A DNA stretch of 38,894 bases from an uncultured Coriobacteriaceae bacterium (GCA_964418305.1 CAYQLX010000002.1:6064-44957); one strand, 5' to 3'; counted from the stretch's first letter, positions 12,306-30,925 are shown. Made by a program: numbers and translations. Notes: generated by a model from the sequence alone, not told the origin.

Positions 12306-12335
12306 GTCAAAAACGCATAAAGGAGGCGGTTACTT

Positions 12336-13307: not shown

Positions 13308-13345
13308 AAAAAGGCGGCGCCCAGAATTCCCATTCCGAGCGCCGC
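13308..13345 (-). terminator. Rho-independent terminator of the 13377-14309 transporter gene
   Basis: Stem GCGGCGC/GCGCCGC (13314-13345), followed on the minus strand by CTTTTTGTGT. Confidence 0.7.
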
Positions 13346-14473: not shown

Positions 14474-15973
14474 TTAGTTGAACCTGCGGGCGATATCCAA
14501 ATCCTCGGGGCGGACCTCGCCAGAAGCGCGCCACTCACTGCCCATGTACATCGTGCAGCGGTCATTGTCGTACGTAGGCCACTCAACGCCAAGAGCCTCA
14601 CCGTTGGGGTCATGCTTGACGATGAAGTTATGCCAAACCTCGCGCAACTTGCGGCCGTATTCCGGATCCGGCTTGTCGCCCAGAAGCGTCTCGCCAGACT
14701 TGAGCTCGAGGTAGAGATTGCCGTCGAGCTTGTCGGCAACGTAGGGAATCTCAAAGCAATGCTGAGCACGGAGCGTACAGCCCTCGGGTTTCACGTCAAT
14801 GTAGTAAACCCAAACGTTGCTGCCGCCCTTGGCCACCTCTTCAGATGCTTTTGCCTGGGCCGCACGGATGAGGAAGTCGTTGAACATATCCTCCATCGTC
14901 TCATGTGCGTCGCGCGCAGGGTCGGTTGCCTTGTATGCCTCGATGTCTGCATCGGTGAGCGTGGGGAACATCTCTTTGAGAGCATCGGCTATCTCATCGG
15001 GAGACATGTTCATCACATTGGGGGCAAACTCGCCAGAAACAGTGCCACTCAAGAGCGCTATGTGCTTGCAAGCGCCGCTCTTCCACTCATCCTCCAGCTT
15101 GCTCGTAAGATCAGTGTCATCGCAAACAGGCCCGAACAGTGCCATGTTGCCAGGCTTCATCTTGGCTTCGAAGCCGTACTTGACAACATCTTCAATGGGC
15201 ATATCCAAGACGTCTTTGAGCGTCTTGCAACCAGAAAGCTCGTAGAAGTCATCAAAACCGTGCTTGACGGACTCGGCATCCGCACGCAGGACCTCATCAG
15301 AAGGCGCGGTGCTCTCGGCGATAACGCCCTTAATCATGCCGCGAACCTCGGGCATGCCCATCAGCACGTAAACAGAGTACGAACCCGCGCTCTGGCCGCC
15401 GATGGTGATTTGCTCGGGGTCGCCGCCAAAGGCCTCGATGTTCTCATAAACCCATTTGATGGCCGCAGCCTGATCATGCATCTGAAGGTTGATGCTGCCG
15501 GCGTAATCCTCGGCGCCTTCAAAGCGGGAAAGATCCATGGAGCCCACGGGCCCAATGCGGTACTCAATGTTCACATAGACAACATCAGGGTAATGCTCAA
15601 CGAACTTATCGCCGCAGTAGACGCCACCAAAGCAATCGGTGCGGCAGCTGCCGGTGATGTAGCTTCCGCCGTGGATGAAGATGTAGACGGGCTTCTTGCC
15701 CTCTGTACCGCTAGTCCACACGTTGAGGTACAGGCAGTCTTCGCTCAAAGGCGGCTTGCCGTCGGGGTATTCCTCAACGGGAACAGCCTGATAGCATGCG
15801 GGGTTGTCGTTAAGAGCCAGATACCTCTCGTCGGAGGGCTCCAAGGGCTGCGCGCGCTTCCAGCGATGCACGGGCTTTGCATAGCGGATGCCAAGATACT
15901 CCTGGACGCCGCTGTCTAGAAGCTTGCCAACGTAGACACCGGTTTTTGCTGTTGCAGTCACCAAGTTTTCCAT
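14474..15973 (-). CDS. Type-B carboxylesterase (para-nitrobenzyl esterase/cholinesterase fold), paralogue A
   Basis: EDCLYLNVW, oxyanion IHGGSY, nucleophile elbow GGQSAGS (Ser codon 15389-15391), acid SGEF, His in RAQHCFEIPYV. No signal peptide. RBS GGGAG. Confidence 0.9.
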   Translation of the reverse strand: MENLVTATAKTGVYVGKLLDSGVQEYLGIRYAKPVHRWKRAQPLEPSDERYLALNDNPACYQAVPVEEYPDGKPPLSEDCLYLNVWTSGTEGKKPVYIFIHGGSYITGSCRTDCFGGVYCGDKFVEHYPDVVYVNIEYRIGPVGSMDLSRFEGAEDYAGSINLQMHDQAAAIKWVYENIEAFGGDPEQITIGGQSAGSYSVYVLMGMPEVRGMIKGVIAESTAPSDEVLRADAESVKHGFDDFYELSGCKTLKDVLDMPIEDVVKYGFEAKMKPGNMALFGPVCDDTDLTSKLEDEWKSGACKHIALLSGTVSGEFAPNVMNMSPDEIADALKEMFPTLTDADIEAYKATDPARDAHETMEDMFNDFLIRAAQAKASEEVAKGGSNVWVYYIDVKPEGCTLRAQHCFEIPYVADKLDGNLYLELKSGETLLGDKPDPEYGRKLREVWHNFIVKHDPNGEALGVEWPTYDNDRCTMYMGSEWRASGEVRPEDLDIARRFN

Positions 15974-16226
15974 TTTTGACTCCCATCAAAAAATGCAATC
16001 GCGCTATCGCCAGAGCTTCTGACGACAGACGTCCTGTCAACATAACCCAGTTTCCTTGATGGTCGTGCTAAACAGAATGTCGGAGAACACCAACACTTAG
16101 CACGAAGATTGTGCAAAACGACCAAATCATCTGAAAAAGATATTAAGCGCTTTACCCCTTGTCTAGGGGACGCGTAACGCACGCCAGCCATAAAAAGCCC
16201 GCTTGCGCTATGTAATCCATGCACAC

Positions 16227-16259
16227 GCAAAGCGGCCGGTGGAAACACCGGCCGCTTGC
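16227..16259 (-). terminator. Strong GAAA-tetraloop hairpin 31 nt after MFS-A stop
   Basis: GCAAAGCGGCCGGTG [GAAA] CACCGGCCGCTTGC, 14 bp with one bulge. There is no clear U-tract. Confidence 0.5.
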
Positions 16260-16290
16260 TGAGAGAGAAAACCCTAAAGAGGTTTGGGCA

Positions 16291-17604
16291 CTAAGCCTGC
16301 TCTGCTTCCTCGTTCTTGGCATCTTTGTTCATCACGCGGATGAACTCGATGTTATTGCCCTTGAGCTTGAGAAGGATCAGCGAGAGCACGACGGCAACTG
16401 CAACAGCGATAGCGCAGACCATGAACATTCCGGAATAACCGCTGTCGCCGCCGAGCACTGCCAGCCAAGGCGAGATAGCCGCGGCCAGAAGGATGGAGGT
16501 GTAACCGAGCGAGTAGTTAAAGGCAAAGTGCTCGCTGCCAAAGAAGTCACCGATAAGAGACGGATGCATACCGGCAAAGCCACCCAGGCAGAAGCAGTAC
16601 ACGAACGTGCAAACGGCAAACCAGACGATGCCGTGACCCTCGCAGAAGACGAGACCCATAATCGCGATAAAGCCGATGATAAGGATTCCGACAACAACCT
16701 TGAGACGGCCCAGGTGGTCGCCAATGGGGCCAATGATGCAGGACAAGAAGCCCATGACGGAAACGCCGGAGACCAAGAACGCCGCAGTCATATCAGAGAT
16801 ACCGAGGATATCGACGGCGATGTAGGCAAGCTGGTAGGACAAAAGCATGTAACCGGAGCTTGCGCACAGCGGGATGAGGTAGAGCAGATAGAACGCAGGA
16901 TCCTTGAGCATGGCCTTCCAGTCCTTCTGAACGAAGTTGGGATTAGCGATGACCTTGCTCCTCCTGCCCTTACGCTCGCCGGCCTCGGCGTCAGAAGCGA
17001 TGTTCTTGGGCATGTAATCGGCAGGATAATCCGGGAAGAAGATAACCATGACGAGAATCAGGGCTGCCAGAATGATGCCGTTGATGACGAACATCATGTC
17101 AAAGCCCACGCTCTCGATGAGCATCTGGGTCTGAGGGGCCAAGATCATGCCGCCAGCGCTGATACCGCATGCGCACAAGCCAACCGCAAAGCCGCGGTAA
17201 TCGGGGAACATGCGCTCGACGGTGGTCATAACAGAGATATAGATGACCGCCTGCTGCCAACCAATGAAGACAACCTGGGCAATGGCAAAACCAAGGATGC
17301 TGTTGTTGAAGCCGCAGATCAACATACCGATGAGAAGCATCACTGCGCAACTGATGATCGACTTTGTAACGCCAAACTTATCGACAAACTTGCCACCAAT
17401 GATGGTGAACACCGCACCGGCAATCGTAAGACCTGAGTAAATCGTTGCCATGCCTGCTTCCGTGGCACCACGAATGGTGATCATAGGATCGACGAGCAAG
17501 CTCCATGTCATGCCCAAAGCAGCCGTGGAAATGATGATCATACTGATGACCAGTGCAATCCACCTGTATCTGTCGGGGTTTTCGGGTCTGAACTGAAGAT
17601 GCAT
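16291..17604 (-). CDS. MFS transporter, oxalate/formate antiporter (OFA)-like family, paralogue A
   Basis: 437 aa, 12 TM-like segments with a central charged loop. ATG 17602-17604 follows AGGAGGG. Alignable full-length with 23771-25072. Confidence 0.85.
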   Translation of the reverse strand: MHLQFRPENPDRYRWIALVISMIIISTAALGMTWSLLVDPMITIRGATEAGMATIYSGLTIAGAVFTIIGGKFVDKFGVTKSIISCAVMLLIGMLICGFNNSILGFAIAQVVFIGWQQAVIYISVMTTVERMFPDYRGFAVGLCACGISAGGMILAPQTQMLIESVGFDMMFVINGIILAALILVMVIFFPDYPADYMPKNIASDAEAGERKGRRSKVIANPNFVQKDWKAMLKDPAFYLLYLIPLCASSGYMLLSYQLAYIAVDILGISDMTAAFLVSGVSVMGFLSCIIGPIGDHLGRLKVVVGILIIGFIAIMGLVFCEGHGIVWFAVCTFVYCFCLGGFAGMHPSLIGDFFGSEHFAFNYSLGYTSILLAAAISPWLAVLGGDSGYSGMFMVCAIAVAVAVVLSLILLKLKGNNIEFIRVMNKDAKNEEAEQA

Positions 17605-17626
17605 AAGAACCCTCCTGTTGCCTTAC

Positions 17627-17696
17627 TTTGAATGCGCTCCTCTTGCACATCCGCTTGTGGCTAATACACCCGGAATTTTGAATGCGCCGCTCGTGC
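17627..17696. promoter_or_regulatory. Direct repeat TTTGAATGCGC(N)CTC(N)TGC x2, spaced 50 nt, in the MFS-A / PucR-A divergent region
   Basis: 17627-17646 is TTTGAATGCGCTCCTCTTGC and 17677-17696 is TTTGAATGCGCCGCTCGTGC (17/20 identical, the first 11 nt perfect). Confidence 0.4.
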
Positions 17697-17967
17697 TGCG
17701 AAATAGCACCACTTACCTAAAGTTTGGCGATTTTTTGTGCAAAATTTACAAGACGATAACAAAAGCACACTTGTACGCTCCTATATGTTCAGACGGCAAA
17801 GCCAAGGCCCAATCGCACAAAACAAACGTGTTGAGCGGGGCACAAAATAGCAAAGCATCAATGGCAGCCGCAAGGGCGTAAGTCAGCCCTTGCAACAGAC
17901 AGAAGAAGTTCATAAACTCACAGGCAAAATTCGCTGTCATGCGAGCACAAGAAAACAGGGAGGCGCG

Positions 17968-19197
17968 ATGCGAATCTCTATGTTCTACAAGCAGGAGCTT
18001 GGCAATCACCTAAAGCGTTGCTCGATATCGTTTAATGACACGGTTTTGCCAAAGGGAATCATCATCGTCGATGATGAGACAGCTCCGCGCGAAGGACATC
18101 TGTGCATCGTAAGCTCTAGCGCTGTGGATTCGTTTAACACAGATTGCAAAGACGTAAAGAGCTGCTATTTCTTCCTAACCACAGGCGCCGCCGAGCTCTT
18201 TGACATGCTCGCAAAAAGAGGCAACTGTGCAGTCTATGCAACAGACCTCGATTGCATTCCGCTTTACAACCTTCTCTATACTGCATCGCTTCATTCCGGT
18301 TCTTCCGAGGTGAACCTCGCTCCTGGCGGTAGCGACTTTGCCAACTTCATCCACGACGTTTTACGTATGCGTCTTGTACATGAAAATGAAATATTCAATG
18401 CCTATAGTGAATTCCCTAATACAGCGGACATGTCTTTTAGGGTTTTAATATTTGAATTTGAGAAAGACCAAGCAACTGCTGTCAATATCGGCATGCTCTC
18501 AAGACGATTGAAGAGCATCTTTTCCCGCGTGAATTGCACCAATTACTTTGGGCGCTTTATCGCAATCCAGCAAGCAGGTGATTGGAAGAAAGACGACATA
18601 CATTTCTCATCCGATGTACAGGCTCAGCTGGAGGAAGTGTGCATCTCAACCCACTGCTATTGCTCGGTAGGATGCCCAATCCTTAACTGGCAAATATTGC
18701 GTACACAGATTCACATGATTACCTCTACCCTGCGTATTGCATTGCGCCTGTCCAAGGATTCAAGCAAACGCATTTTCTATTCAGAGGAATATATGCTGCA
18801 GCTCACTTTGAACTGGGCTTTCAAGGGCTACACAGAAGAGTATTTGCATGAGAACTACATGTATATGCTCTACCCCGGCGTTGCTCAGATCATCCGCTAT
18901 GACCAAGAAAATGGCACCGACCTACGGGACGTTTTGCTGCAGTACCTCCTCAACGAGAGAAACGCCACAAAGACTGCAGACGCCTTGTTCATGCACCGCA
19001 ACACCGTCCTCTATAAAATCAAGAAAATTGAGTCCCTTCTTGGGGACGACTTAGAGGATCCGGCGACAAGGGAGCGCATCCAATGGTCGTGCAGGATGAG
19101 CGAGTTCTGCGAGCGAGCCCTCGACGTCATGCCCGATCAGTTCAAAGGCTATGGCTCGTCCAAGAGGTTCCCCATCAACCCGTCAATTCTTGACTAG
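17968..19197 (+). CDS. PucR/CdaR-family transcriptional regulator, paralogue A
   Basis: Start trimmed to ATG 17968 after GGGAGG. C-terminal PucR HTH: LLQYLLNERNATKTADALFMHRNTVLYKIKKIESLLG. Confidence 0.8.
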   Translation: MRISMFYKQELGNHLKRCSISFNDTVLPKGIIIVDDETAPREGHLCIVSSSAVDSFNTDCKDVKSCYFFLTTGAAELFDMLAKRGNCAVYATDLDCIPLYNLLYTASLHSGSSEVNLAPGGSDFANFIHDVLRMRLVHENEIFNAYSEFPNTADMSFRVLIFEFEKDQATAVNIGMLSRRLKSIFSRVNCTNYFGRFIAIQQAGDWKKDDIHFSSDVQAQLEEVCISTHCYCSVGCPILNWQILRTQIHMITSTLRIALRLSKDSSKRIFYSEEYMLQLTLNWAFKGYTEEYLHENYMYMLYPGVAQIIRYDQENGTDLRDVLLQYLLNERNATKTADALFMHRNTVLYKIKKIESLLGDDLEDPATRERIQWSCRMSEFCERALDVMPDQFKGYGSSKRFPINPSILD

Positions 19198-19221
19198 ACG
19201 GCTATCGCTAAAAACGCGTGG

Positions 19222-20442
19222 CTAACAGCCTACGACCACCTCGTCGCCGTCCCATGAAAGCTTGCCGTTAAGGCCTGCCTCTGTCGTGACGCGCTGCATG
19301 TACTCGAAGGTCTCTTGGCCCTTCTGATCTTGGCCGTGTACATAGGGCACGCCGCTTTTCTCTGTCTGCATGAGCACCATCCGCGTCTGAGCGATTCTTG
19401 CCACGCCATCTGCGTCTTTTTTGATGATGAGCTTTGCCGCATGACAATGGACAGACTCTGGATGGAAGGGATAGGTGGGGTACTCGGGGTCTGGCACAAA
19501 GCCAAAACGTTTGACGCGCGCCTTGATCCACTCCTGGTTGACGGAGTCGGCCCCTCCTGGAATCTCTCCCTTGAAGTTGGGCGAAAGTTGGGGAACCCAC
19601 ATCACAAAGTTGTTGAGGCCGTGGAAGATGGGCGCGCCCTTGTAGACTTCGACTCCGTGCGAGATATGACTGTGAGAACTCATCACCGCATCTGCACCAT
19701 TATCCACGGCCATATGGGCGATTAAGCGCTCCCATGTGTCGACGACCACAGGCTGATGCACGTAACCCTTGTGATAATAGGCGATGAGGATGTCACAGTC
19801 CTTCTTGGCTGCACGTATGTCCGTTGCCATCTTCTCCAAGGCATCGCAGGAAACAAAGTTATGCCCTCTAAAGAGACCATCCATCTGCTGGGGTTCTTTA
19901 AGCGACCATACATCCCACTCCACGCGTGCATCGCGCGAAGATTGATCCACCTGGGTGTCCACCCACGCGCGTGTGAACTCCAGCCCGTTGGTGCCTCCCC
20001 TGTCATCGCGCGCAAACGTGTACTTAGAGCCAACGCAGTTCCACGCGATGACGCCTATCCTCACGCCGTTCTTTGTTATGTATGCGGGCTTTGCGGCTTG
20101 CGCAGCGTCCAAACCTCCGCCGCAGCAGGCGATGCCCTTCTCCTGACACCAATCGATGGTGTCTTTGACGCCTTGCTCGCCGTAATCATAGAAATGGTTG
20201 CCGGATAGCGTGACCAGGTCCACTTTGCCCACAACGGGCTCTAGGACATCCACGAGCTTGTCGTGGCCGGCTTCTGGGAGCAGCTGGCGCGTATAAGGTT
20301 CCTCGAGCTGGAACATACGCACATCGCATGAGTCGAGCAAGGGAGTGACTCCCTGCAGGTACTTGGACGCCTCGCGCCCTACCGAGAAATCTCCGGCAAA
20401 CAAAACAGAGATTTCCTCTTGCCCGCTTTTGCCCTCTATCAC
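19222..20442 (-). CDS. CapA-like (PGA_cap) metallophosphoesterase-fold protein
   Basis: FAGDFS, FQLEEPYT, LSGNHFYDYGEQG, YYHKGYVHQ, GADAVMSSHSHISHGVEVYKGAPIFHGLNNF. GTG start follows AAGGGAG. Confidence 0.7.
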   Translation of the reverse strand: MIEGKSGQEEISVLFAGDFSVGREASKYLQGVTPLLDSCDVRMFQLEEPYTRQLLPEAGHDKLVDVLEPVVGKVDLVTLSGNHFYDYGEQGVKDTIDWCQEKGIACCGGGLDAAQAAKPAYITKNGVRIGVIAWNCVGSKYTFARDDRGGTNGLEFTRAWVDTQVDQSSRDARVEWDVWSLKEPQQMDGLFRGHNFVSCDALEKMATDIRAAKKDCDILIAYYHKGYVHQPVVVDTWERLIAHMAVDNGADAVMSSHSHISHGVEVYKGAPIFHGLNNFVMWVPQLSPNFKGEIPGGADSVNQEWIKARVKRFGFVPDPEYPTYPFHPESVHCHAAKLIIKKDADGVARIAQTRMVLMQTEKSGVPYVHGQDQKGQETFEYMQRVTTEAGLNGKLSWDGDEVVVGC

Positions 20443-20490
20443 AGCTGCTCCCTTCGCCTTTGCCTGCTGGCCGTCAAATCAAAGATAGAT

Positions 20491-22065
20491 CTAGTTCTGT
20501 TCAAATGCCGTGGGGTCGTTTTGCGCCTTCCTGGCGTAGCACTGGCCGCCACAGTAAGCAGAAAGCGCCTTGCCCAACAGCATGTTTACCTCATCGTCGT
20601 TGTCGTCTTTTGCGCTGGCGCACACGGCAAGGCTCTGGTAGTTGATGCCCTCGTACATGAGCTCCTTGGCCTTTTCCAAAACCTGCTCTCGCTCTTGCGA
20701 GCGCTCGCTCAGATGATAGACATCGCGGGCGGCAAACCAAAGCTGCTGCTCGAGCTCCTGGCGCGCCTCGGCGACGACAGCCAATGCGTCGCCCACCAAG
20801 CGGATCTTCCAGAACGTGCCCAGCGAATGCGGGTGCAGCGACAAGCAGGGCGTGCTGTCGCCCTTCATGCAGTAGAAGGCGCGCTCTTCGACATCGACCA
20901 CGTGGCGCAAGACGGGTCTAAACCCGGCCGAGTGCACCTGTGGGGACCAATCCCCCATATCGAGACCGTTGTCAAAGATAGGCACCCAGTTGTTATGCCA
21001 CCCTGAGGGGACGGGTTGCGATTGGTCGTGCTTCCAGACGTCGAGCCCCCAATCCTCACGATAAGGACGCGACCAACCTTCAGGAACGTAGTAATCGTCG
21101 ATGCTTTCTGCGGCAAAGAGCGTCTGCTTGCTGATCTTGCCCCAATGGTCCTGGACAAACTTCTCGACACTCCAGTAGCGCGGGTCGGTATCGCTCCAGT
21201 ACTTAGCCCCCTGGTTGAGGCAGTCTTGCATATCGGGATGATGGGACCCATTGTTCTCGAGCAAATAATCGGTCTCTCCCAAATCCCCCGACCTGCGCAC
21301 GCGCTTCTTCTTGCCGGTGAACTCCATGAGCCACACGTCATGGGATTCATCGCCGGCAAGTTGATTGCAGCCTGTCACGAACTCCCAATCGCGATATGGG
21401 GCCATAGCCTCCTCGGCCGAGTTGCTAAACGCCGCAGCATAAATGTTGGCGTCGTTCCACATATGGCGCCAATCGCCTTCGACGGGCTTGCGGATGCTTC
21501 CCTCGCCTGCGTTTTGGTGCCCGGAGCCTTGGAGCAAGACGCCTTTCTCGTTAAGGCAGGTGCGATGGAAAAGCTCGCAGGAGATGAATGCGTTGCCGTC
21601 TTGCGGGTAAGCCAAAACAGCGGGAAGGTACTCGCGCGCCTCGTAGCCCAAGTCCATGTTGGAAGCGCCGATGAGATGCCCATCTTTTGTGGCGCTGCCC
21701 CATGCTGCAACCTCGGAGCACTCGCGCTCTGCACGCAACATGCTAATGCCGTAAAGACTTAGGACTGCCTCGTCAAACGGGCGGCCAGCCTCGTCGGCCA
21801 TGCCCTGGACGAGCTGAATGAGCTGCGGGAAGTCCTTCTCGCAGGCTTTGAGGTAGCGTTTGCCCATAGAGCGGATATGTTCCTCGTCGCCAAGGGCACC
21901 GTAGTAGTCTGCAAAGGTGCTGGCGCAACGGGCGATAAATGCCTCTTTGCACTGCGCAACGTACTGGCGCCCCATGTCATACCAAGAACCGCTTACGATG
22001 GCGATGCGCTGGAACGGGCTTATTTTCATGCAGGGATCGAACGGATATGCATCATGGATGCTCAT
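20491..22065 (-). CDS. C45-family (acyl-CoA:6-APA acyltransferase-like) Ntn-hydrolase-like protein with a long C-terminal extension
   Basis: Candidate nucleophile Cys116 lies in RECSEVAAWGSATKDGHLIGASNMD, resembling the C45 CT..G..G.NWD region. 524 aa against about 350 typical. RBS GGAGG. Confidence 0.55.
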   Translation of the reverse strand: MSIHDAYPFDPCMKISPFQRIAIVSGSWYDMGRQYVAQCKEAFIARCASTFADYYGALGDEEHIRSMGKRYLKACEKDFPQLIQLVQGMADEAGRPFDEAVLSLYGISMLRAERECSEVAAWGSATKDGHLIGASNMDLGYEAREYLPAVLAYPQDGNAFISCELFHRTCLNEKGVLLQGSGHQNAGEGSIRKPVEGDWRHMWNDANIYAAAFSNSAEEAMAPYRDWEFVTGCNQLAGDESHDVWLMEFTGKKKRVRRSGDLGETDYLLENNGSHHPDMQDCLNQGAKYWSDTDPRYWSVEKFVQDHWGKISKQTLFAAESIDDYYVPEGWSRPYREDWGLDVWKHDQSQPVPSGWHNNWVPIFDNGLDMGDWSPQVHSAGFRPVLRHVVDVEERAFYCMKGDSTPCLSLHPHSLGTFWKIRLVGDALAVVAEARQELEQQLWFAARDVYHLSERSQEREQVLEKAKELMYEGINYQSLAVCASAKDDNDDEVNMLLGKALSAYCGGQCYARKAQNDPTAFEQN

Positions 22066-22104
22066 GAGAAAACCTCCGATTCATTTATCCGTGCTTAAAG
22101 CAAG

Positions 22105-22138
22105 CAGGCCCGATGAGAGCTTTGCTTCATCGGGCCTG
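22105..22138 (-). terminator. 12-bp hairpin between esterase B and the C45-like gene
   Basis: CAGGCCCGATGA [10 nt] TCATCGGGCCTG, followed on the minus strand by CTTGCTTTAAGC. Confidence 0.45.
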
Positions 22139-22144
22139 TGATTG

Positions 22145-23650
22145 CTATTTCTGGTAATGACGAATGATCTCGATGTCTTTGCGACGCGCGCCGTCCTCGA
22201 CAGAGAACTCTTTGTCAAAGATTGCGGTCTTTTGCGCGTCTTCATCATACAAAGGCCACTCGATACCCAGAGACGGACCATTGGGGTCACCCGAGACGAT
22301 GAAGTTGTACCAGACGTCTTGGATCTTCTTGCCAAACTCATAATCAGGATGCTCACCTGCGAGCTTCTCACCGCTGGTCAGGTACAAATACATTCCCGCA
22401 TCCGGCTTACCGGACACAAACATAAGCTCTGCGCAGTGCTGAGCGCGGATGCGCGCGCCTTCTGGCTTGAAGGGCATGTAGTACATGTAGACCTTGCTGC
22501 CACCCTGCAAAACAGCTTCCGTCGAGGAAATCTGCCTGAGACGCATGCCAAGGTCGTTGTACATGTCCTCCATGGTCTCGGACTCGGGGCGATTGGGGTA
22601 GTTGTCCTTGAATGCCTGGATATCCTCATCGGTGACCATGGGGAAGCGGGAGCGTACGCGCTTCTCGATGTCTGCCGCGCTCATGTCGATCATATCGGTC
22701 GAGTACTCGCCGGCAAGAGTGCCACTCATCACAGCAACGTGCTTGGCGCAACCAGAGGCCAAAGCAACCTCTATGTCCATGGGGATAACCTTATCGTCGC
22801 GGCACGGGTTATAGCCTGCGTACCCAGGCTCCATGAACAGAGCGTCAGATGCTGCCACAAGCTGTAAAGGCGTTGCGGCAAGCATGTCGTCGAGCGATTT
22901 TGCGTCCAGATAATCGGCCATCATCTTACCCGTACGCTTGGCGTCCTCGGGCGCCTTGGTGGTGCGGATGGGGCCGGTAGTGGGAGCGGAGCTTTCGCAG
23001 ATGGCACCGCAGAAGAGCTTGGCAGCCTCGGGGATTGACATGAGGACGAAGCAAGAGTAGCTTCCCGCGCTCTGGCCGCCGATAGTCACATGATCGGGAT
23101 CTCCGCCAAACGCTGCGATGTTTTCCTGTATCCACTTGAGCGCGGCGATCTGGTCGAGGATCTGCAAGTTGTTGGAATCTGCGTACTCGCCTTTATCGTC
23201 AAAGGCGCTCAGGTCCATAGAGCCAAACGGCCCAAAACGGTACTCGATGTTGACAAAGACCGTATCCGGATGCGTTGCGACAAACTCATCGCCGCAATAA
23301 ATGCCGCCAAAGCAATCCGTGCGAATGCTGCCCTCGACATAGCTGCCGCCGTGGATGAACACATAGACGGGCTTCTTGCCGGACTCACCGTTGGTCCAGA
23401 TGTTGAGATTGAGACAGTCCTCGCTCATAGGAGGTTCGCAGTCAAACTCCTCGGGCATGTACGTCTGCCAAGGCGCGGGTCTGTCTTCCAGAGCGCTGAT
23501 AAGCGTATCACTTGGCTTAAGCGGCGTTGCGCGCTTCCAACGCTGAGGGGGATTCGCATAGCGGATGCCCAGATACTCGTGGACTCCATTAGGCAAAACT
23601 TTGCCAACATACTCGCCGGTGACGGCTTTAGCGTGAACTTGATTAGCCAT
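22145..23650 (-). CDS. Type-B carboxylesterase, paralogue B
   Basis: Start trimmed to ATG 23648-23650 (MANQVHAK) after GGAAAGGGAAG. EDCLNLNIW, IHGGSY, GGQSAGS (Ser codon 23069-23071), AGEY, RAQHCAELMFV. Confidence 0.9.
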   Translation of the reverse strand: MANQVHAKAVTGEYVGKVLPNGVHEYLGIRYANPPQRWKRATPLKPSDTLISALEDRPAPWQTYMPEEFDCEPPMSEDCLNLNIWTNGESGKKPVYVFIHGGSYVEGSIRTDCFGGIYCGDEFVATHPDTVFVNIEYRFGPFGSMDLSAFDDKGEYADSNNLQILDQIAALKWIQENIAAFGGDPDHVTIGGQSAGSYSCFVLMSIPEAAKLFCGAICESSAPTTGPIRTTKAPEDAKRTGKMMADYLDAKSLDDMLAATPLQLVAASDALFMEPGYAGYNPCRDDKVIPMDIEVALASGCAKHVAVMSGTLAGEYSTDMIDMSAADIEKRVRSRFPMVTDEDIQAFKDNYPNRPESETMEDMYNDLGMRLRQISSTEAVLQGGSKVYMYYMPFKPEGARIRAQHCAELMFVSGKPDAGMYLYLTSGEKLAGEHPDYEFGKKIQDVWYNFIVSGDPNGPSLGIEWPLYDEDAQKTAIFDKEFSVEDGARRKDIEIIRHYQK

Positions 23651-23667
23651 TTCTAGCTTCCCTTTCC

Positions 23668-23709
23668 AAAAAATTGGCTGGAGCCCTTGTGCAAAAACTC
23701 CAGCCAATT
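23668..23709 (-). terminator. Strong rho-independent terminator between MFS-B and esterase B
   Basis: 12-bp stem AATTGGCTGGAG/CTCCAGCCAATT with a 14-nt loop. On the minus strand it runs straight into TTTTTT, then the esterase-B RBS. Confidence 0.75.
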
Positions 23710-23770
23710 AATTAAACACTTTTATTGGCGAGCTGTGACCAAGCAGTCACCGCCTCTTTAAGGCAATGCT

Positions 23771-25072
23771 CTACTCGGCATCCTTCTTACGAAGGATGTA
23801 CTCGGTCTTACCGTTGCGGATGTGACGCAGGATAAGAGAAATCACAAAGCCGATAGTGCACATAACAGTGCAGAGCATGAAGATGGGCACATAGTCGGGG
23901 CTGTCGCCAGTGGTGCGGCCGACAACTGCCAGCCAAGGAGAGATGGTAGCAGCAACCAAGACGCCGATGTAGACGATGGAGAAGTTAGAGCCAAAGTGCT
24001 CGCCACCAAAGAGGTCGTTGGTCAGAGGACCGGTGGAGCCAGCCAGAGAGCCCATGAAGAAGCAATAGGCAAAGCAGCAGACTGCGAACCAGACGATGCC
24101 ATGGCTACCGGAGAAGATCAGGCCGCCGATAGCAATCGTGCTGAAGAGCAAGCAGATGGGCACCCAGTTAAGACGGCCGATAAGGTCACTGATAAAGCCA
24201 CCGATAATCTTTGCAGCAAAACCGCATGCAGAGACACCGGAAACCAGGAACGCAGCCTCGATGGGCTCGATGCCCAGGATGTCTTGGGCGATGTAGCTCA
24301 TCTGATAGGAAAGAAGCATGAAGCCGGTAACACCAAGCAGAAGAATCGCGAAGAGCATGTAGAACGCAGGGTCCTTGAACATCTCGACGTTGCCCTTCTG
24401 GACAAAATCGGGGTTGGCGACAAAGCGGGTCTTCTTCTTGTCCTCTGCCTCTTCAGCCTCGGCCTGCACATAGCCGGCAGGCTTGTAGTTTTGAGGGGGA
24501 TCCGGGTTGAGGAAAACGCAGATGAGGGACACAACGAAGCAAGAACCGCCGATGATGAAGAACATCGCATCGAAGCCGAAGGTGTCCATGGCTGCCTGGC
24601 AAAGCGGGCTGATGATCATGCCGCCCAGAGAGACGCCTGCAGTGGTGAAGCCCATGGCAACGCCGCGGTGATCGGGGAAGCCCGTAGAAGCGGTAGCCAA
24701 AACAGAGATGTACAAAACGGACTGCTGGAAGCCAACGAAGATAACCTGCGCGATGGCGAACACCCAGATGTTATGCGAGATGCCGCACAGGATGTTGCCA
24801 ATGAAGTAGCAAATCATGGAAATGAGCGTCATCTTATTTGCACCGAGTTTATCGACGAGTTTACCGCCGACAACGGTAAAGATCATGCCAACAACAGTCA
24901 GACCGGAGTAGCAGCCTGCCATGAAGGCATCGGATGCGCCACGCTCGTTGATCATGGGGTCTACCAAGAGACTCCAGATGTGGCCGGTGCATGTCATGAG
25001 CAGGATCATGCCTGCTACGAGCGACACCCACCTAAACGCATCGTAGTTTTTTGGTTTGAACTGGAAAGCCAT
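23771..25072 (-). CDS. MFS transporter, OFA-like family, paralogue B
   Basis: Start trimmed to ATG 25070-25072 (MAFQFKPKNYDAFRW) after AGGAGG. Collinear with paralogue A (WSLLVDPMI, FAIAQV, KDPAFY, GHGIVWFAVC, ISPWLAV). Confidence 0.85.
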   Translation of the reverse strand: MAFQFKPKNYDAFRWVSLVAGMILLMTCTGHIWSLLVDPMINERGASDAFMAGCYSGLTVVGMIFTVVGGKLVDKLGANKMTLISMICYFIGNILCGISHNIWVFAIAQVIFVGFQQSVLYISVLATASTGFPDHRGVAMGFTTAGVSLGGMIISPLCQAAMDTFGFDAMFFIIGGSCFVVSLICVFLNPDPPQNYKPAGYVQAEAEEAEDKKKTRFVANPDFVQKGNVEMFKDPAFYMLFAILLLGVTGFMLLSYQMSYIAQDILGIEPIEAAFLVSGVSACGFAAKIIGGFISDLIGRLNWVPICLLFSTIAIGGLIFSGSHGIVWFAVCCFAYCFFMGSLAGSTGPLTNDLFGGEHFGSNFSIVYIGVLVAATISPWLAVVGRTTGDSPDYVPIFMLCTVMCTIGFVISLILRHIRNGKTEYILRKKDAE

Positions 25073-25105
25073 TTCAATACCTCCTAAACAATTTCCCTTC
25101 TTGCG

Positions 25106-25127
25106 CATCGACATACATATCGATGTT
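25106..25127. promoter_or_regulatory. Palindrome CATCGA-N8-TCGATG upstream of MFS-B, containing TATCGATGTT
   Basis: CATCGACATACATATCGATGTT lies 34-55 nt upstream of ATG 25072. The 10-mer TATCGATGTT recurs at 27224-27233. Confidence 0.35.
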
Positions 25128-25271
25128 TCATTTACATTAATCAGCCCGCAGACGGTCGGTTATGTTGGTAAGCAACAGAAAAAGGGTCGTTTATTGTTTG
25201 CTAGCGCCATTAACAAACAGGCGAACCCAACATCGCTTTTTGCTTGCTAAAAACCAGTCAGGAGCGCTAAC

Positions 25272-25302
25272 AAAAAAGGCAGGATAGGAACCCTATCCTG
25301 CC
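25272..25302 (-). terminator. Rho-independent terminator of the CocE/NonD gene
   Basis: GGCAGGATAGG [AAC] CCTATCCTGCC, followed on the minus strand by TTTTTTG. Confidence 0.8.
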
Positions 25303-25327
25303 TTTAACCAGCGTAGTGCCGCTACCC

Positions 25328-27199
25328 CTATTTGTAGATGTTGGGGATGGTGACGGACGTGGCGTCATCACCACCAAAGTAGAAGCTGACCTTGGGTTTG
25401 GCGATATCTGCGTTTTCCTCATAAGGGAGACGACCGTAGTAGTACATGCGGTCGCAAGAGTTGGCCAAAGTCACGCGCAGGCAATGCCCCTTCTTCACGC
25501 GATACGACGTAGGCATAACGTCGATATCGAGCGCGTACTTGGTACCAAGCTCGAGGTACTGGCTGTCGCTTTCCTTGCAGGGGTGCCACGGCAAACCCAG
25601 ATAGTCGTAGGGGCATTCCTCGACGGAGCGCTTAGAAGCCCTGAGCTGGCCTTGCGTGATGAGGAAGCACTCGTCTGTCGCGGGGTTGTAGTCAGAAATC
25701 ATCGCAAAGACGTCAACGTCGTAATCCTTGTCCATCCAACCTGGCTCGTCCAAGGAAAAGACAGCGTGCACCATGGGATGTCCGATGATATCGAAGTCGT
25801 CTTCAAGCGCGGCCGAGGTAAACGTCACGCCCTGCTGGTCAAACCCGTTGCCCTTATCCGTTGTGGTGAGCTTGCTCTCCACACCGCAGCCGGGGCCATA
25901 AGGATCCACAAACTCAAAGGCTTCCTCGTTTGCCGGGCAATCAAGTACCAAAGCGCCCTGATCAAGATCGGAGCCAGAGAGCTTCTGTGTCGTGGTGGGA
26001 TAGAAGACCTTCCTTATGCCCTCAGAGACAGGCCAGTCCTTGCGTCCCACGTAAGAGCCGGTGTCTGCGCCTGCTACGGTATGACGCTCGAAGTTGTAGT
26101 TGCAGAGCTTGTAGTTGACCGGCTGCTCGGTATCGACGCCGTTGTCAATGCCCTTGAGCCAATGGTCAAACCAACGACGCATCTCGATATCCCAGCGGAT
26201 GTCGTACTTCTGGTCCATGTGGTACCACGGACCCATGGTGATCTTCTTGGGAAGCTCGAGGTTTTTGTACATGACAAACGTATCGCGGCGGAAGACATCG
26301 TAGACGCCACCCATGCAATAAACAGCCACGCCGGATTTGTTAACCATGTCCTTATAGGAGCTAATGCTGATGACCTTCCAGTGCTCGCCGTCTGCCTCCA
26401 GATAGGAGTCGCGATGCACCAGGTCCCTCATGATGCCAACCTGGTCGCCGTTGTCCAAGTGCATGCGGCAGGCCTCACGCAGCTGGGAGCCATCCAAATC
26501 ATCGTCGACAGGAATCGTCATCGCGGCAAGCTTCTCAACCATCTTGCGGACGCTTTCCTCGTCTTGGGCGTCAAAGTCATCGGGATGGGTCTCGAAGGCG
26601 CGCGGAATACCGCCGCGCAGCCAGCCGTCGTACTTGTCAAAATCCGTCATGCAGGTAAAGCTCGCTTTGAGGCCCTCGGGGCAGGTGGAGATGCACTCCA
26701 AGGTAGTCTGGCCGGTGTAGGAGTAACCGGCAATGCCGACCTTACCCGTGGTAAAGGGCTGCTGGGCAAGCCATTCGATAATCTCTTTGCCGTCTTGTGC
26801 TTCACGACGGGAGTTAGTGGTAACGCGAACGCCATAGGAAGCACCGGTGCCGCGCACGTCGGCAATTGCCACAACGTAGCCGTAGCGGGTCAGATCGAGC
26901 AAGCCCTCGATGCCCCAATCGTCAAAGCGCGGCTCACCGCCCTTTACGCCGTAAAGCTTAGTAGCCTCCTGCGCAGAGGCGATTCGACCGTAGGGGGTGT
27001 AGTGGAAGACAACCGGCAGGGGCTTTTCTTCTACAACACCGCCACACATGGGGCGGTAGTAATCGACAGCAATCTTGGTGCCATCGCTAACCTCGTAGTA
27101 CTGGCTCGTACGCTGTGCGTCGTCATAGTGCGCGTCGTTATAGCCTTCGTACTGGCCGATGCTAGACGTCTTTATGAAAGAAACTGACTTGATAGACAT
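25328..27199 (-). CDS. CocE/NonD-family (S15, X-Pro dipeptidyl-peptidase fold) serine hydrolase
   Basis: Start set at ATG 27197-27199, because the track start at 27205 is TTG. DVRGTGASYG, nucleophile motif AGYSYTGQ, and a large C-terminal beta-domain. No signal peptide. RBS GAGGA. Confidence 0.85.
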   Translation of the reverse strand: MSIKSVSFIKTSSIGQYEGYNDAHYDDAQRTSQYYEVSDGTKIAVDYYRPMCGGVVEEKPLPVVFHYTPYGRIASAQEATKLYGVKGGEPRFDDWGIEGLLDLTRYGYVVAIADVRGTGASYGVRVTTNSRREAQDGKEIIEWLAQQPFTTGKVGIAGYSYTGQTTLECISTCPEGLKASFTCMTDFDKYDGWLRGGIPRAFETHPDDFDAQDEESVRKMVEKLAAMTIPVDDDLDGSQLREACRMHLDNGDQVGIMRDLVHRDSYLEADGEHWKVISISSYKDMVNKSGVAVYCMGGVYDVFRRDTFVMYKNLELPKKITMGPWYHMDQKYDIRWDIEMRRWFDHWLKGIDNGVDTEQPVNYKLCNYNFERHTVAGADTGSYVGRKDWPVSEGIRKVFYPTTTQKLSGSDLDQGALVLDCPANEEAFEFVDPYGPGCGVESKLTTTDKGNGFDQQGVTFTSAALEDDFDIIGHPMVHAVFSLDEPGWMDKDYDVDVFAMISDYNPATDECFLITQGQLRASKRSVEECPYDYLGLPWHPCKESDSQYLELGTKYALDIDVMPTSYRVKKGHCLRVTLANSCDRMYYYGRLPYEENADIAKPKVSFYFGGDDATSVTIPNIYK

Positions 27200-27215
27200 A
27201 AACAAATCCTCGATT

Positions 27216-27233
27216 CATCTAGGTATCGATGTT
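27216..27233. promoter_or_regulatory. CATCTAGGTATCGATGTT upstream of the CocE/NonD gene (shares TATCGATGTT with 25118-25127)
   Basis: 10-mer identity plus a degenerate left half-site. It lies 17-34 nt upstream of ATG 27199, in the divergent region with PucR-B. Confidence 0.3.
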
Positions 27234-27296
27234 GAGAATATATCCGCTGCGCTTTGTTGTACCTATGGATTTGATGCACACAAAAGCTATTATTCA

Positions 27297-27320
27297 ATGT
27301 GAGTTTTGACCATGTGAGTT
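27297..27320. promoter_or_regulatory. Direct repeat ATGTGAGTT x2 upstream of PucR-B
   Basis: 27297-27305 and 27312-27320 are identical 9-mers with a 15-nt period, 58-81 nt upstream of ATG 27378. Confidence 0.3.
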
Positions 27321-27377
27321 CTCTTACCCACGGCATATCTTTTTTTACATGCGACGGGTTATCGCAAAGGAGACCAT

Positions 27378-28571
27378 ATGAAGACCGCCGACTTCATTCT
27401 TAAAGGCTTAGGGCTTCACGCATGCGCGCATGCAACCAACTACCACGGGACGGATTTGCCCAAAGGCATCATATTTCTCACAGAAAACACCCAGCCCCGC
27501 AAAGACTATATGCACATAGCAGCCTTGGACGACCTACTCAGATTCAAACTCACACCGGAGGCGTTGGCAGAATGCTACGTGTTCACGGTAGCACCCGATG
27601 CCGTGAGCACGATTCAGATACCACCGCTTGAAAACGTGTCGTTGTACCAAACGGACCTCGACTGCTTTGAGCTTTATAACCTGCTTACCGACATCTGCGA
27701 GCGTATGAAGTCAAGCCCCATCACGCGCGCATCAAGCGGCCACAACTTCGCGGATTTCATACATGACGTGGTCTCTATGAACATCACCCGCGCCGACGAG
27801 ATACTCACGCATCTGCGCAAGTTTCCCAACGTAAACGACGCCGGATACCGCATCCTGTCCTTTGAGTTCGATGACAAAGACCCAAGCGACACCCAGTATT
27901 CGCGCCTCATCAACACGGTACAAAAGATCTTCCCCTACTCAAACTCTGCCATCTACTTTGGACGCGTCGTCACCATGGCACAATCCATCGCAAGAGAGAA
28001 AGACGTCATTGTCATGCCGCAGACGCACATGGACAAACTCGTCAAAGCATGCGAGGACCATAAATGCTGCTGCGGTGTGAGCAACACGACGATAAATTGG
28101 ACGATGATACGCACGAACTTCATCAGCGCGAGCACGACGCTGGATATAGGACGCGCCATGAGAAAAGACCCCAATCAACGCGTGTTCTTATCAGAAAAAG
28201 CGCTGGTCTATCGCATGTTGGACATCTATTATCGCGATTTCAAGAGGGAATTCAGGCATGATAGCTACATCTACATGCTTCATCCCGGATTAGCTGCCGT
28301 GATCCGCTACGACGCCGCCCACGACACAGATCTGCGCAAGCTGCTCTACAGCTATCTGCGCAACGAGCGCAATCTCACACGCACCGCCACAGAGATGAGC
28401 ATGCACCGCAACACCGTCATCTACAAGGTCAAGACCCTTACCTCGCTTGTCGAAGACGACCTTGATGACCCGATCATAAGGTTGAGGTTGCTGCTTAGCT
28501 GCATGATGTGTGATTACGCCGAGAAAGCCTTTGGCATTCCGCCGACGAGCTTTCCGGGGTACACAAAGTAA
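27378..28571 (+). CDS. PucR/CdaR-family transcriptional regulator, paralogue B
   Basis: RBS AAGGAGA. C-terminal HTH LYSYLRNERNLTRTATEMSMHRNTVIYKVKTLTSLV. Shares LPKGII, TDLDC..LYNLL, FA.FIHDV and YMYMLYPG/YIYMLHPG with paralogue A. Confidence 0.8.
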   Translation: MKTADFILKGLGLHACAHATNYHGTDLPKGIIFLTENTQPRKDYMHIAALDDLLRFKLTPEALAECYVFTVAPDAVSTIQIPPLENVSLYQTDLDCFELYNLLTDICERMKSSPITRASSGHNFADFIHDVVSMNITRADEILTHLRKFPNVNDAGYRILSFEFDDKDPSDTQYSRLINTVQKIFPYSNSAIYFGRVVTMAQSIAREKDVIVMPQTHMDKLVKACEDHKCCCGVSNTTINWTMIRTNFISASTTLDIGRAMRKDPNQRVFLSEKALVYRMLDIYYRDFKREFRHDSYIYMLHPGLAAVIRYDAAHDTDLRKLLYSYLRNERNLTRTATEMSMHRNTVIYKVKTLTSLVEDDLDDPIIRLRLLLSCMMCDYAEKAFGIPPTSFPGYTK

Positions 28572-28649: not shown

Positions 28650-29819
28650 CTACTGGCCCTTACGCAGGTACTCGTCGATAACGCGCTTTGACGCGATGCG
28701 AACCATAATCTCGTCTGTTCCCTGGGCAAGCTGATAACCACGGCAATCGTTCCAGATGCGTCCAACACGCGTTAGGCGTGTGTAACCCAAGCCGCCAAAG
28801 ATCTGAAGCGCCTCCGAAGCGACCTCTGTTGCGGCCTTAGGTACGAAGCGTTTGGCCAAAGCGGCAGAGAGTCTGCAATCCTGCCCGGCGTCCACTTGGA
28901 TCGCAGCCTGCTCTATCAGCGACCTCATAGAGCGAATCTTTATCTCCATATCGGTGATTTTCTCTTGGATTTGGGCCAGGTTGGAGATAGTTGAGCCAAA
29001 GCACACGCGGCTAGAAGCGTACTTCACGGCGTCGTCCATCGCCGCCTGTGCAAGACCCAAAGACGCAGCACAGGCAAGGATACGGCCGACGGCAAAGGCA
29101 TCGGTCATAGGCGCGTGCGCACGGCCGCGCTCACCAATGACAAACTCCGGGCGCATCTCTACGTCCTCGAACTTAATCATCGCCTGCGGGGTCATGGTCT
29201 GGCCGATTGTCTCTATGGGGTAGGTGCTCACGCCCGGCAAGGTCCTGGGAAAAAGCCAAAACGTAAGACGTTGGTCTTTGTCTGTCGAGTCCTCCTCTTT
29301 GGCGACGGCCATGATATAAGGCTCGAACTGGCCATTGCTCACGTACATTTTCATGCCGTTCAGATAGACTTTGCCATCCCGCGTGACGGTGGAAGTCTCC
29401 ATGGCAAAGGTGTCGGTTCCAGAAGACGGCTCTGTGATCGCCTCGGAAAAACCCGTGGCGCCTGTCGATTCAATCATGTTGCGCACCAGGTCAAAGTGGT
29501 CCTCACCACCTAAGATCTGCATCAATCGAATGCTGAGGATATGAGTGAGAAACGGCAACGCCGCCCCTGCCGTGCGATGCAGCTCCTCAATAACAAAGAT
29601 TTGGGTCATGAAATCGGCAGGTACTCCGCCCAATGCCTCGGGCAGACCCATCTTGCCTAGGTCACTCGCGTAAAACGCCTTGAGAACATCGGATGGCATG
29701 CCCTGCCCTTTGCACCAGCTCTGTATGCTCTTCTCATCCAGGTACTTATCGGAAAAATCCCTTACAAGTTCTTGGACCTCAAGACGACGCTTGTCATACT
29801 GCGTGGTTTCCAAAGCCAT
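28650..29819 (-). CDS. Acyl-CoA dehydrogenase-fold flavoprotein lacking both canonical catalytic Glu positions (ACAD-2)
   Basis: Start trimmed to ATG 29817-29819 (MALETTQYD) after GAGGGA. ITEPSSGTD, GLAQAAMDDAVKYASSR, FGGLGYT. Gly245 (codon 29085-29087) sits at the IVD-type base position and Gln366 (28722-28724) at the MCAD-type base position. Confidence 0.85.
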   Translation of the reverse strand: MALETTQYDKRRLEVQELVRDFSDKYLDEKSIQSWCKGQGMPSDVLKAFYASDLGKMGLPEALGGVPADFMTQIFVIEELHRTAGAALPFLTHILSIRLMQILGGEDHFDLVRNMIESTGATGFSEAITEPSSGTDTFAMETSTVTRDGKVYLNGMKMYVSNGQFEPYIMAVAKEEDSTDKDQRLTFWLFPRTLPGVSTYPIETIGQTMTPQAMIKFEDVEMRPEFVIGERGRAHAPMTDAFAVGRILACAASLGLAQAAMDDAVKYASSRVCFGSTISNLAQIQEKITDMEIKIRSMRSLIEQAAIQVDAGQDCRLSAALAKRFVPKAATEVASEALQIFGGLGYTRLTRVGRIWNDCRGYQLAQGTDEIMVRIASKRVIDEYLRKGQ

Positions 29820-29933
29820 GCCATCCCTCGAGACAGATCGGTCAAAGCTCTCATGAAGCTCGACGTTCTTACATAACAACCCTGCTATTAGAAAACAAAT
29901 TTTACAGCTATCACAAAGCTGCAGGGCAAAAGC

Positions 29934-29997
29934 AAGAGCCGCTGCATAGGCGAGCGTGCAAGGGACGTGCCCTAACACCCGCCGCGCAGCGGCTCTT
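29934..29997 (-). terminator. Long-range 12-bp stem after etfA (possible terminator or processing structure)
   Basis: AAGAGCCGCTGC (29934-29945) pairs with GCAGCGGCTCTT (29986-29997), with a nested AGGG/CCCT hairpin. On the minus strand it is followed by GCTTTTGCCC. Confidence 0.4.
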
Positions 29998-30020
29998 TGC
30001 GTCTATATCAAAGTCAGCTT

Positions 30021-30914: not shown

Positions 30915-30925
30915 GTTCTCTCTTC

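Follow-up and report, generated by a model that had tools for sequence, protein, structure and literature searches.

The window analyzed here is a 38,894-nt stretch of DNA from an uncultured Coriobacteriaceae bacterium, and its numbering is used throughout; related loci that were compared with it carry L-numbers. It encodes two sets of three genes, each consisting of a PucR-family regulator, a major facilitator superfamily (MFS) transporter and a family VII (type-B) carboxylesterase. In module A, the genes for the esterase EstA (14474-15973, minus strand) and for its paired MCT/OFA-like transporter MfsA (16291-17604, minus strand; MFS_1 131 bits) are followed by the PucR-A gene (17968-19197, plus strand), which is divergent from MfsA. 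Module B consists of EstB (22145-23650, minus strand), MfsB (23771-25072, minus strand; MFS_1 137 bits) and PucR-B (27378-28571, plus strand). The open reading frame listing, Pfam and NCBIfam place all six genes at the positions and in the families given by an earlier note on this DNA. The order and orientation of the two sets are also the same, as that note had stated, but module B is not a contiguous triad, because the gene for a CocE/NonD (S15) hydrolase (25328-27199, minus strand) lies between MfsB and PucR-B and is divergent from the latter. Three hydrolase genes in the block had been omitted from the note: this CocE/NonD gene, a C45-family N-terminal nucleophile (Ntn)-type hydrolase/acyltransferase-like gene (20491-22065, minus strand) and a CapA/PGA_cap-like metallohydrolase gene (19222-20442, minus strand), which is the last of the module B string and convergent with PucR-A. 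The minus-strand order is thus S15, terminator, MfsB, hairpin, EstB, hairpin, C45 and CapA-like.

A diverged duplication

All three protein pairs align over their full length by BLASTP at identities far above family level: 50% for EstA/EstB (E 4e-175), 48% for MfsA/MfsB (E 1e-136) and 36% for PucR-A/PucR-B (E 3e-91). The nearest proteins outside the esterase clade are only ~30% identical to EstA and EstB. Stretches of DNA that still resemble each other in the two modules are separated by a constant 7.47-7.68 kb (15346-15645 and 23026-23325, for instance, share 69% identity over 300 nt), which is the trace expected of a diverged direct duplication. In neighbor-joining trees with 200 bootstraps, the A-type and B-type esterases each form a group with 100% support and are sisters at 92%, separate from two Clostridial esterase subclades. 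PucR-A and PucR-B are sisters at 99%, with the single PucR of the Clostridial clusters as the next outgroup, and the transporter tree did not resolve the A/B sister relation (8-29% support). The pairwise identities, the esterase and PucR trees and the constant-offset DNA similarity together bear out the duplication that had been proposed by eye, and on this evidence the two PucR-MFS-esterase sets are paralogs, the products of a direct duplication specific to the lineage of a Coriobacteriia-like gut anaerobe.

The placement of the esterases and PucR proteins in the trees indicates that the duplication occurred within the lineage, long before the split from L010 and L100, whose proteins are 86-89% and ~70% identical, respectively, to their window orthologs. 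Synonymous sites between the paralogs are saturated (pS 0.64-0.79), which makes the ratio of nonsynonymous to synonymous substitution (dN/dS) of the paralog pairs uninformative, and ortholog comparisons were therefore used. Ortholog dN/dS is 0.03-0.10 for all nine genes examined, including 0.06 for EstA against its L010 ortholog and 0.06 for EstB, so both module copies have been kept by purifying selection. The gene content of L100, with an EstA ~70% identical to that of the window, is the same but the order has changed: the S15 gene follows EstB, and PucR-A and PucR-B are adjacent in tandem (10001-12477), as they also are in L101. The order in the window fits a tandem duplication of the triad with later insertions.

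The GQSAG esterase clade

Scores for the COesterase family (PF00135; cut-off 27 bits) are 225 for EstA and 227 for EstB, and the catalytic triad S195/E315/H405, with S195 in a GQSAG nucleophile elbow, is invariant in 39 clade sequences. The AlphaFold model of EstA (mean confidence, pLDDT, 95.2) has template modeling scores of 0.85-0.87 to solved bacterial family VII esterases; the fold search gave no substrate information beyond the esterase family level. No N-terminal hydrophobic, signal-like segment is present in either protein, in agreement with the absence of signal peptides claimed earlier, and both look cytoplasmic. The clade is small and sharply bounded: out of 5.8 billion, 40 clusters formed at 90% identity belong to it, with scores down to 327 bits, and the following match drops to 199 bits. 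On sequence criteria, it is a new subfamily within the type-B/family VII carboxylesterases. The clade esterase was not found on known plasmids, where the best match is 30% identical, and a contig scan with the clade alignment gave only ~30%-identity relatives among the matches listed.

The Bacillus subtilis PnbA (1QE3), Geobacillus Est50/Est55 (2OGS) and Thermaerobacter (8WDM) esterases resemble EstA and EstB in fold (template modeling scores 0.8-0.87), in their apparent cytoplasmic location, in their size of ~500 amino acids and in their Ser-Glu-His triad. They are, however, only 26-30% identical and have a GESAG elbow rather than GQSAG. Unlike known family VII esterases, the EstA/EstB clade is small and is tied to a dedicated MFS transporter and a catabolic island. 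Insect juvenile-hormone esterases carry the GQSAG elbow according to the literature, and the earlier note, which correctly reported the motif in both esterases, took it to be diagnostic of those enzymes. That specificity does not hold, because GQSAG is invariant throughout this bacterial clade (40 of 40 members) and is also found in 6 of the next 80 bacterial homologs outside it, 70 of which have GESAG. In the PDB, bacterial esterases and cholinesterases make up the 60 best matches by sequence and the 50 best by fold, and none of these chains bears the name of a juvenile-hormone esterase. Membership of the juvenile-hormone esterases, which are secreted eukaryotic proteins, was rejected, since the closest solved relatives of EstA and EstB are bacterial pNB-type esterases and neither protein has a signal-like segment.

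The partner transporters

MfsA and MfsB align over all 12 transmembrane helices with SfMCT (6G9X), an L-lactate/H+ symporter, and OxlT (8HPJ), an oxalate:formate antiporter, which are their closest solved relatives (93 bits for MfsB against SfMCT). The earlier label of OFA-type transporter is apt at superfamily level but does not extend to the curated family. Scores against the NCBIfam models are far below cut-off for TIGR00890 (OFA; 119 and 113 bits, cut-off 375), for TIGR04259 (OFA; 128 and 94 bits, cut-off 335) and for the SfMCT model (188-191 bits, cut-off 320), and the arginine of the eighth transmembrane helix (TM8) with which SfMCT (R280) and OxlT (R272) bind the substrate carboxylate is replaced in both proteins, by cysteine at about residue 273 of MfsA and by Lys288 in MfsB. 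Strict OFA membership was rejected on both counts.

Across the related loci, the TM8 position is lysine in the B-type and L007-type transporters and uncharged in the A-type and L093-type transporters. The arginine is kept only in a separate MFS protein adjoining a homolog of CarE, an electron transfer flavoprotein (ETF) subunit of Acetobacterium woodii (L007, 19076-20299; L093, 6221-7426; L096, 3287-4501). The difference in TM8 charge suggests that modules A and B differ in the charge of their substrates, and retention of the arginine suggests that the separate transporter handles the free acid. The lysine/uncharged/arginine pattern as a whole points to three substrate classes for the carriers of the island. 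Import would be the direction of transport for MfsA and MfsB, given that all five hydrolases appear to be cytoplasmic and that other exporter candidates (MatE, EamA) are present.

The accessory hydrolases and the conserved island

None of the five hydrolases has an N-terminal hydrophobic segment, and the catalytic residues are kept in all of them. The S15 protein (Peptidase_S15 152 bits, with PepX_C) scores 205 bits against TIGR00976 (CocE/NonD; cut-off 66), and its nucleophile motif, G158-Y-S160-Y-x-G163, is invariant in eight orthologs. Cys116-Ser117 of the C45 protein (NCBIfam NF040521, 95 bits, cut-off 85) is invariant across orthologs, and so are the GNHD and HxH motifs of the CapA-like protein (PGA_cap 145 bits) in five orthologs. 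C45 homologs lie beside clade esterases in L007, L010, L097 and L100, and L007, L097 and L100 likewise have a CapA/PGA_cap gene after a clade esterase.

The survey of related loci covered about 10 loci, several of them mutually related, with clade esterases 37-88% identical to EstA. A transporter of the clade is directly beside the esterase in 9 of 11 esterase contexts, but not in L097 or in L008, where a CitMHS carrier is encoded. Such neighbors are seen twice in each of the window, L010, L096 and L100 and once in each of L007, L093, L095 and L099, and MFS homologs occur on the same contigs as the esterase orthologs. The functional pairing of transporter and esterase that had been read from their adjacency is strengthened by its recurrence at clade esterases of only 37-50% identity. 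The other recurring partners are CocE/NonD proteins in eight loci, C45 and PGA_cap proteins in five, a pair of HGD-family subunits with a family III CoA-transferase in eight, and a family I CoA-transferase with an acyl-CoA dehydrogenase (ACAD) and ETF in seven. In the Clostridial loci, MFS-Est-S15-HGD-HGD-CoA_transf_3 forms one tightly packed string; the stop and start codons of its MFS, esterase, S15 and HGD genes even overlap in L095, by a few bases. The other Clostridial clade esterase is found one to three genes upstream of CoA_trans-ACAD-ETFb-ETFa.

In Eubacteriales bacterium DFI.9.88, a cultured human-gut isolate of the Clostridia (L099 and L007), the gene order is: a C45 gene on the minus strand; MFS-Est-PGA_cap-MatE; CoA_trans-ACAD-ETFb-ETFa-MFS; AraC; MFS-Est-S15-HGD-HGD-CoA_transf_3; and PucR on the minus strand. 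Although the window and DFI.9.88 represent different phyla, their family I CoA-transferases are 67% identical, the family III CoA-transferases 62%, the 450-residue HGD subunits 64% and the second HGD subunits 43%, followed by MatE (47.5%), the esterases (40-44%), the MFS transporters (36-49%) and S15 (36%). The ACADs are only 28% identical, which indicates non-orthologous replacement of the reductase. The triads do not, then, stand alone as had been supposed: they belong to a conserved ~30 kb island, which also encodes three further hydrolases and a reductive pathway that depends on CoA, and this changes the functional reading of the modules.

Serine recombinase or phage-like genes flank some versions of the island (L008, 15282-16778; L093, 21208-21512). 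Together with the 62-67% identities between a Coriobacteriia-like contig and a Clostridia isolate, they suggest horizontal spread of the island. Two unrelated agmatine-type enzymes are encoded inside it, an arginase/agmatinase family protein in L093 (17248-18138) and a PAD_porph (agmatine deiminase family) protein in L100 (4315-5421), a hint that guanidino-amine conjugates such as hydroxycinnamoyl-agmatines may be among the substrates.

The CoA-level enzymes and known pathways

A ydi/fix-like gene set, on the minus strand at 3337-8131 and 28650-32879, is split in two (3337-8131 and 28650-33730) by the esterase/hydrolase/HGD island. By Pfam and NCBIfam, the first part encodes an acyl-CoA ligase (3337-4893), a YdiF-like family I CoA-transferase of 520 amino acids (4926-6488), a FixX-like protein (6540-6839) and a FixC/YdiS-like protein (6836-8131). 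The second part encodes two ACADs (28650-29825 and 31719-32879) that match NCBIfam PRK12341, which we take to be the YdiO type, at 333 and 450 bits, and ETF alpha (30021-30914) and beta (30926-31684), which match the YdiR/YdiQ-type ETF models. The best NCBIfam matches of these flanks (PRK12341, PRK10015 for the FixC/YdiS-like protein, PRK12342 and PRK11916) correspond to the Escherichia coli ydiF-ydiO-ydiQRST-ydiD (fadK) set, with the difference that in the window the set is divided by the island. The family III CoA-transferase (8307-9518; CoA_transf_3 335 bits) and the two HGD/BCR-family subunits (9552-10904 and 10904-12070; HGD-D, PF06050, 167 and 162 bits) are likewise on the minus strand. 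A window HGD subunit is at least 90% identical to a protein annotated from Candidatus Aphodovivens avistercoris, a chicken-gut member of the Coriobacteriia. A LysR gene on the HGD/CoA-transferase side and a TetR gene on the ACAD/ETF side, where the set extends to 33730, complete the flanks.

The A. woodii car system for caffeate respiration consists of the CoA-transferase CarA, the ligase CarB and the caffeyl-CoA reductase-ETF complex CarCDE (PDB 6FAH). CarA and CarCDE activate and reduce caffeate in an energy-conserving CoA loop, CarA also taking 4-coumarate and ferulate (PMC8085960). Close homologs of CarC and CarE are encoded one to three genes from the Clostridial clade esterase. The DFI.9.88 ACAD matches CarC at full length (379 of 379 residues, 560 bits; next match, 401 bits), and its ETF alpha matches CarE at 580 bits, the N-terminal ferredoxin domain included. 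The Clostridial ACADs are 83-90% identical across four loci, and the CarC homolog is preceded by a CoA-transferase of 518 amino acids; the 67% match of the window family I CoA-transferase in DFI.9.88 is this gene immediately upstream of the CarC homolog. The window thus encodes candidate counterparts of the car CoA-transferase and ligase, but the reductase is YdiO/FixABCX-like instead of CarCDE. Its ACADs match PDB 4RM7 at 244 bits and CarC at 174 bits, and its ETF alpha, of 297 amino acids, is without the ferredoxin domain of the CarCDE type. The car system also differs in taking free caffeate, with neither an esterase nor an importer described (PMC8085960). A recent preprint treats gut CarC homologs as phenylacrylate reducers and does not mention esterases.

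The fldAIBC and hadAIBC operons are like the island in having a CoA_transf_3 gene beside two HGD-D subunits, with ACAD/ETF genes nearby. They differ in having an activator (I): no activator ATPase of the BcrAD/HgdC type was found among the called genes of the window or of the related ~21 kb loci, and activator-less HGD pairs are present in the window (9552-12070, minus strand), L093, L095, L096, L097, L099 and L100. The window subunits are far from HadB and HadC (85 and 98 bits against NCBIfam cut-offs of 750 and 700), and among solved proteins the 450-residue subunit is closest to MbdO, a subunit of a class I aryl-CoA reductase (77 bits), and slightly farther from HadB (59 bits). The low scores and the missing activator gene led us to reject identity with a canonical Had/Fld dehydratase. 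The pair may act as a dehydratase, as a reductase, of rings or otherwise, or as a dehydroxylase.

Regulators and intergenic sites

PucR-A and PucR-B contain the PucR helix-turn-helix domain (PF13556/HTH_30; 66 and 49 bits, cut-off 27), and their N-terminal sensor regions have no Pfam match. Control by PucR, as proposed in the earlier note, would be lineage-specific, since in the Clostridial versions AraC adjoins the MFS-esterase pairs and a single PucR is encoded elsewhere in the cluster. The divergent intergenic regions of both modules contain conserved footprints, as seen for the 363-bp PucR-A/MfsA region by comparison with L010. The 9-mer TTTGCACAA has exactly three copies in the window (16109-16117, 17735-17743 and 23687-23695), all of them intergenic within the modules. 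A direct repeat of GCGCATTCAAA, with two copies 50 nt apart (17627-17696), is just upstream of the MfsA ribosome-binding site, and only part of it is kept in L010. Both are candidate regulator sites; we do not claim TTTGCACAA as an operator, because one copy is in a hairpin loop and L010 keeps only TGCACAA.

The intrinsic terminator after the S15 hydrolase gene (25275-25305, minus strand; a 14-bp stem then a T-run) is retained in L010, where the stem has changed in a compensatory way. MfsB and EstB are separated by a hairpin followed by a T-run (23670-23720), and EstB and the C45 gene by another hairpin (22104-22139). These hairpins are strong and may divide the gene strings into shorter transcription units, or serve for attenuation or stabilization.

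A hypothetical model for conjugate uptake, cleavage and reduction

We consider the chances to be a little better than even that the two module sets are the front end of a conserved ~30 kb catabolic island for conjugated, probably hydroxycinnamate-type, acids. The model is built on gene content, paralogy, conservation, catalytic residues and co-localization as observed. Each MCT/OFA-like transporter would import a conjugated organic acid, an ester, which would be cleaved in the cytoplasm by EstA or EstB according to the transporter with which the esterase is paired. The CocE/NonD, C45 and CapA-like hydrolases would cleave related ester or amide conjugates. The freed acid would be activated first by the acyl-CoA ligase and then in a CoA loop through the family I CoA-transferase, and the enoyl-CoA would be reduced by ACAD/ETF (YdiO/Fix-type in the window, CarCDE-type in Clostridia) as an electron sink. 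The family III CoA-transferase and the HGD/BCR-family enzyme may process a second product or a 2-hydroxy-acid precursor. PucR-A and PucR-B would be local, ligand-responsive regulators, with the A and B modules differing in substrate. The direction of transport, the substrates, the regulation and every reaction step are what we infer from the arrangement of the genes.

By analogy with the car system, the most likely substrate class is esters of hydroxycinnamates (phenylacrylates), for example chlorogenate- or rosmarinate-like dietary phenolics. The proposal comes from the CarC and CarE homologs of DFI.9.88 and the chemistry of CarA and CarCDE on caffeate, coumarate and ferulate. For the window, with its YdiO/Fix-type reductase, what ties it to hydroxycinnamates is the set of shared CoA-transferases, HGD subunits and hydrolases, and the 62-67% identities of the CoA-transferases and larger HGD subunit to those of DFI.9.88 lead us to expect the same acid chemistry.

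Several points weigh against this proposal. The reductase of the window is of another type, only 28% identical to the CarC type, which leaves the caffeate link indirect there. The activator-less HGD pair is as near to a class I aryl-CoA reductase (MbdO) as to a dehydratase (HadB), and the family III CoA-transferase is nearest to formyl-CoA transferases, not to a characterized aryl-lactate enzyme. The bacterial esterases known to act on chlorogenate and cinnamoyl esters come from other alpha/beta-hydrolase families. Hairpins and terminators between most module genes make co-transcription only putative, and the loci surveyed are few, with several mutually related.

No characterized equivalent of a PucR-OFA-esterase system was found in the literature search, as the earlier note had supposed, nor was a report coupling a caffeyl-CoA reductase with an esterase or a report on DFI.9.88. 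The combination of car-, fld/had- and ydi/fix-like parts with a hydrolase front end likewise had no prior description that we could find in the literature. A bolder extension, which we regard as doubtful, is that the island is a complete gut-anaerobe pathway in which GQSAG esterases and their importers de-esterify compounds of the chlorogenate, rosmarinate and sinapine types, the hydroxycinnamate is respired through a CoA loop and the activator-less HGD/BCR enzyme with CoA_transf_3 converts the other part, such as quinate or an aryl-lactate, as its CoA ester. If so, it would provide enzymes for a long-known microbial route, to which genes have not been assigned, from dietary quinate or chlorogenate to cyclohexane- or benzoate-type products, the precursors of hippurate.

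What becomes of ester-linked phenolics in the diet, and of many ester drugs, is decided by gut microbes, and few dedicated uptake-hydrolysis systems are known in strict anaerobes. The analysis defines a bounded esterase clade, its partner transporters and a gene set linking de-esterification to a CoA-dependent reductive module. Because this gene set occurs in two phyla and in the cultured isolate DFI.9.88, the hypothesis is directly testable. If the model is true, caffeate-type respiration would gain a preceding stage in which conjugates are cleaved, and the metabolism of polyphenol esters could be traced by marker genes in gut metagenomes of humans and poultry.

Alternative explanations

The two triads may instead be self-contained PucR-controlled uptake-hydrolysis cassettes for a dietary or drug ester, independent of their neighbors. 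The triads are true paralogs of shared order and orientation, the PucR/MFS intergenic footprints are conserved and terminator-like hairpins set the triads off from neighboring genes, all of which such cassettes would explain. Independence is difficult to reconcile with the recurrence of the same hydrolases, CoA-transferases and reductase genes with clade esterases across phyla, despite shuffled gene order, and a PucR for each module is at odds with the AraC beside the Clostridial pairs and with the tandem PucR genes of L100. We judge this explanation unlikely, although it survives better than the others.

Next, and also unlikely, is degradation of amino-acid esters, depsipeptides and N-acyl or peptide-like conjugates into a Stickland-type reductive branch, as in had/fld. 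The hydrolases would release 2-hydroxy or 2-amino acids to the family III CoA-transferase, a 2-hydroxyacyl-CoA dehydratase and ACAD/ETF. Relatives of CocE/NonD include alpha-amino-acid ester hydrolases, the C45 family includes acyl-CoA:6-aminopenicillanic acid acyltransferase, and CapA-like and C45 enzymes act on amide bonds. The content of HGD-D, CoA_transf_3 and ACAD/ETF genes is like that of had/fld, and the arginase family protein of L093 and the PAD_porph protein of L100 point to nitrogenous moieties. Against this stand the scores of the HGD subunits, 85-98 bits where the HadB/HadC cut-offs are 700-750, the lack of an activator gene, and a Clostridial reductase that is a CarC/CarE homolog and not of the nearest solved Bcd/Acd type.

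Detoxification, in which the esterases inactivate xenobiotic esters and the transporters export the products or the xenobiotic itself, seems quite improbable. In its favor are the promiscuity common among family VII carboxylesterases, the nearby MatE, EamA and further MFS genes, and the absence of the anion-binding TM8 arginine from MfsA. But cytoplasmic esterases require entry of the substrate, uptake or exchange is the role of SfMCT and OxlT, the closest characterized transporters, the island already has separate exporter candidates (MatE, EamA and MFSX), and the tight, conserved pairing with catabolic CoA enzymes favors nutrition or respiration.

The least probable alternative, a cai/fix-like pathway for choline or carnitine esters, would account for an esterase family that includes cholinesterases, for FixA/B/C/X-like genes with a family III CoA-transferase, for ACADs that match crotonobetainyl-CoA dehydrogenase at 205-275 bits and for an MfsA without a positive TM8 residue, but that CoA-transferase scores 336 bits against formyl-CoA transferases and only 105 bits against CaiB, on which ground the carnitine pathway was rejected, YdiO is a better match to the ACADs than CaiA, neither a BCCT transporter nor CaiD is present, and the glutamine of GQSAG replaces the glutamate beside the nucleophile whose charge is used by cholinesterases for choline binding.

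Other features of the window

Genes for MatE, EamA and further MFS transporters are near the modules. The EamA-family gene (13377-14309, minus strand; EamA 70 bits; 310 amino acids in the gene call, L001) is downstream of EstA and is followed by a terminator at 13314-13345. No Rfam elements were found in the window. Three minus-strand reading frames toward its end are seemingly unrelated to the modules: a weak radical-SAM-like frame with BioB/PylB-type matches (35203-36267; E ~1e-8), an APH-family kinase (36368-37411) and an RseP-like M50 protease with a PDZ domain (37492-38772).

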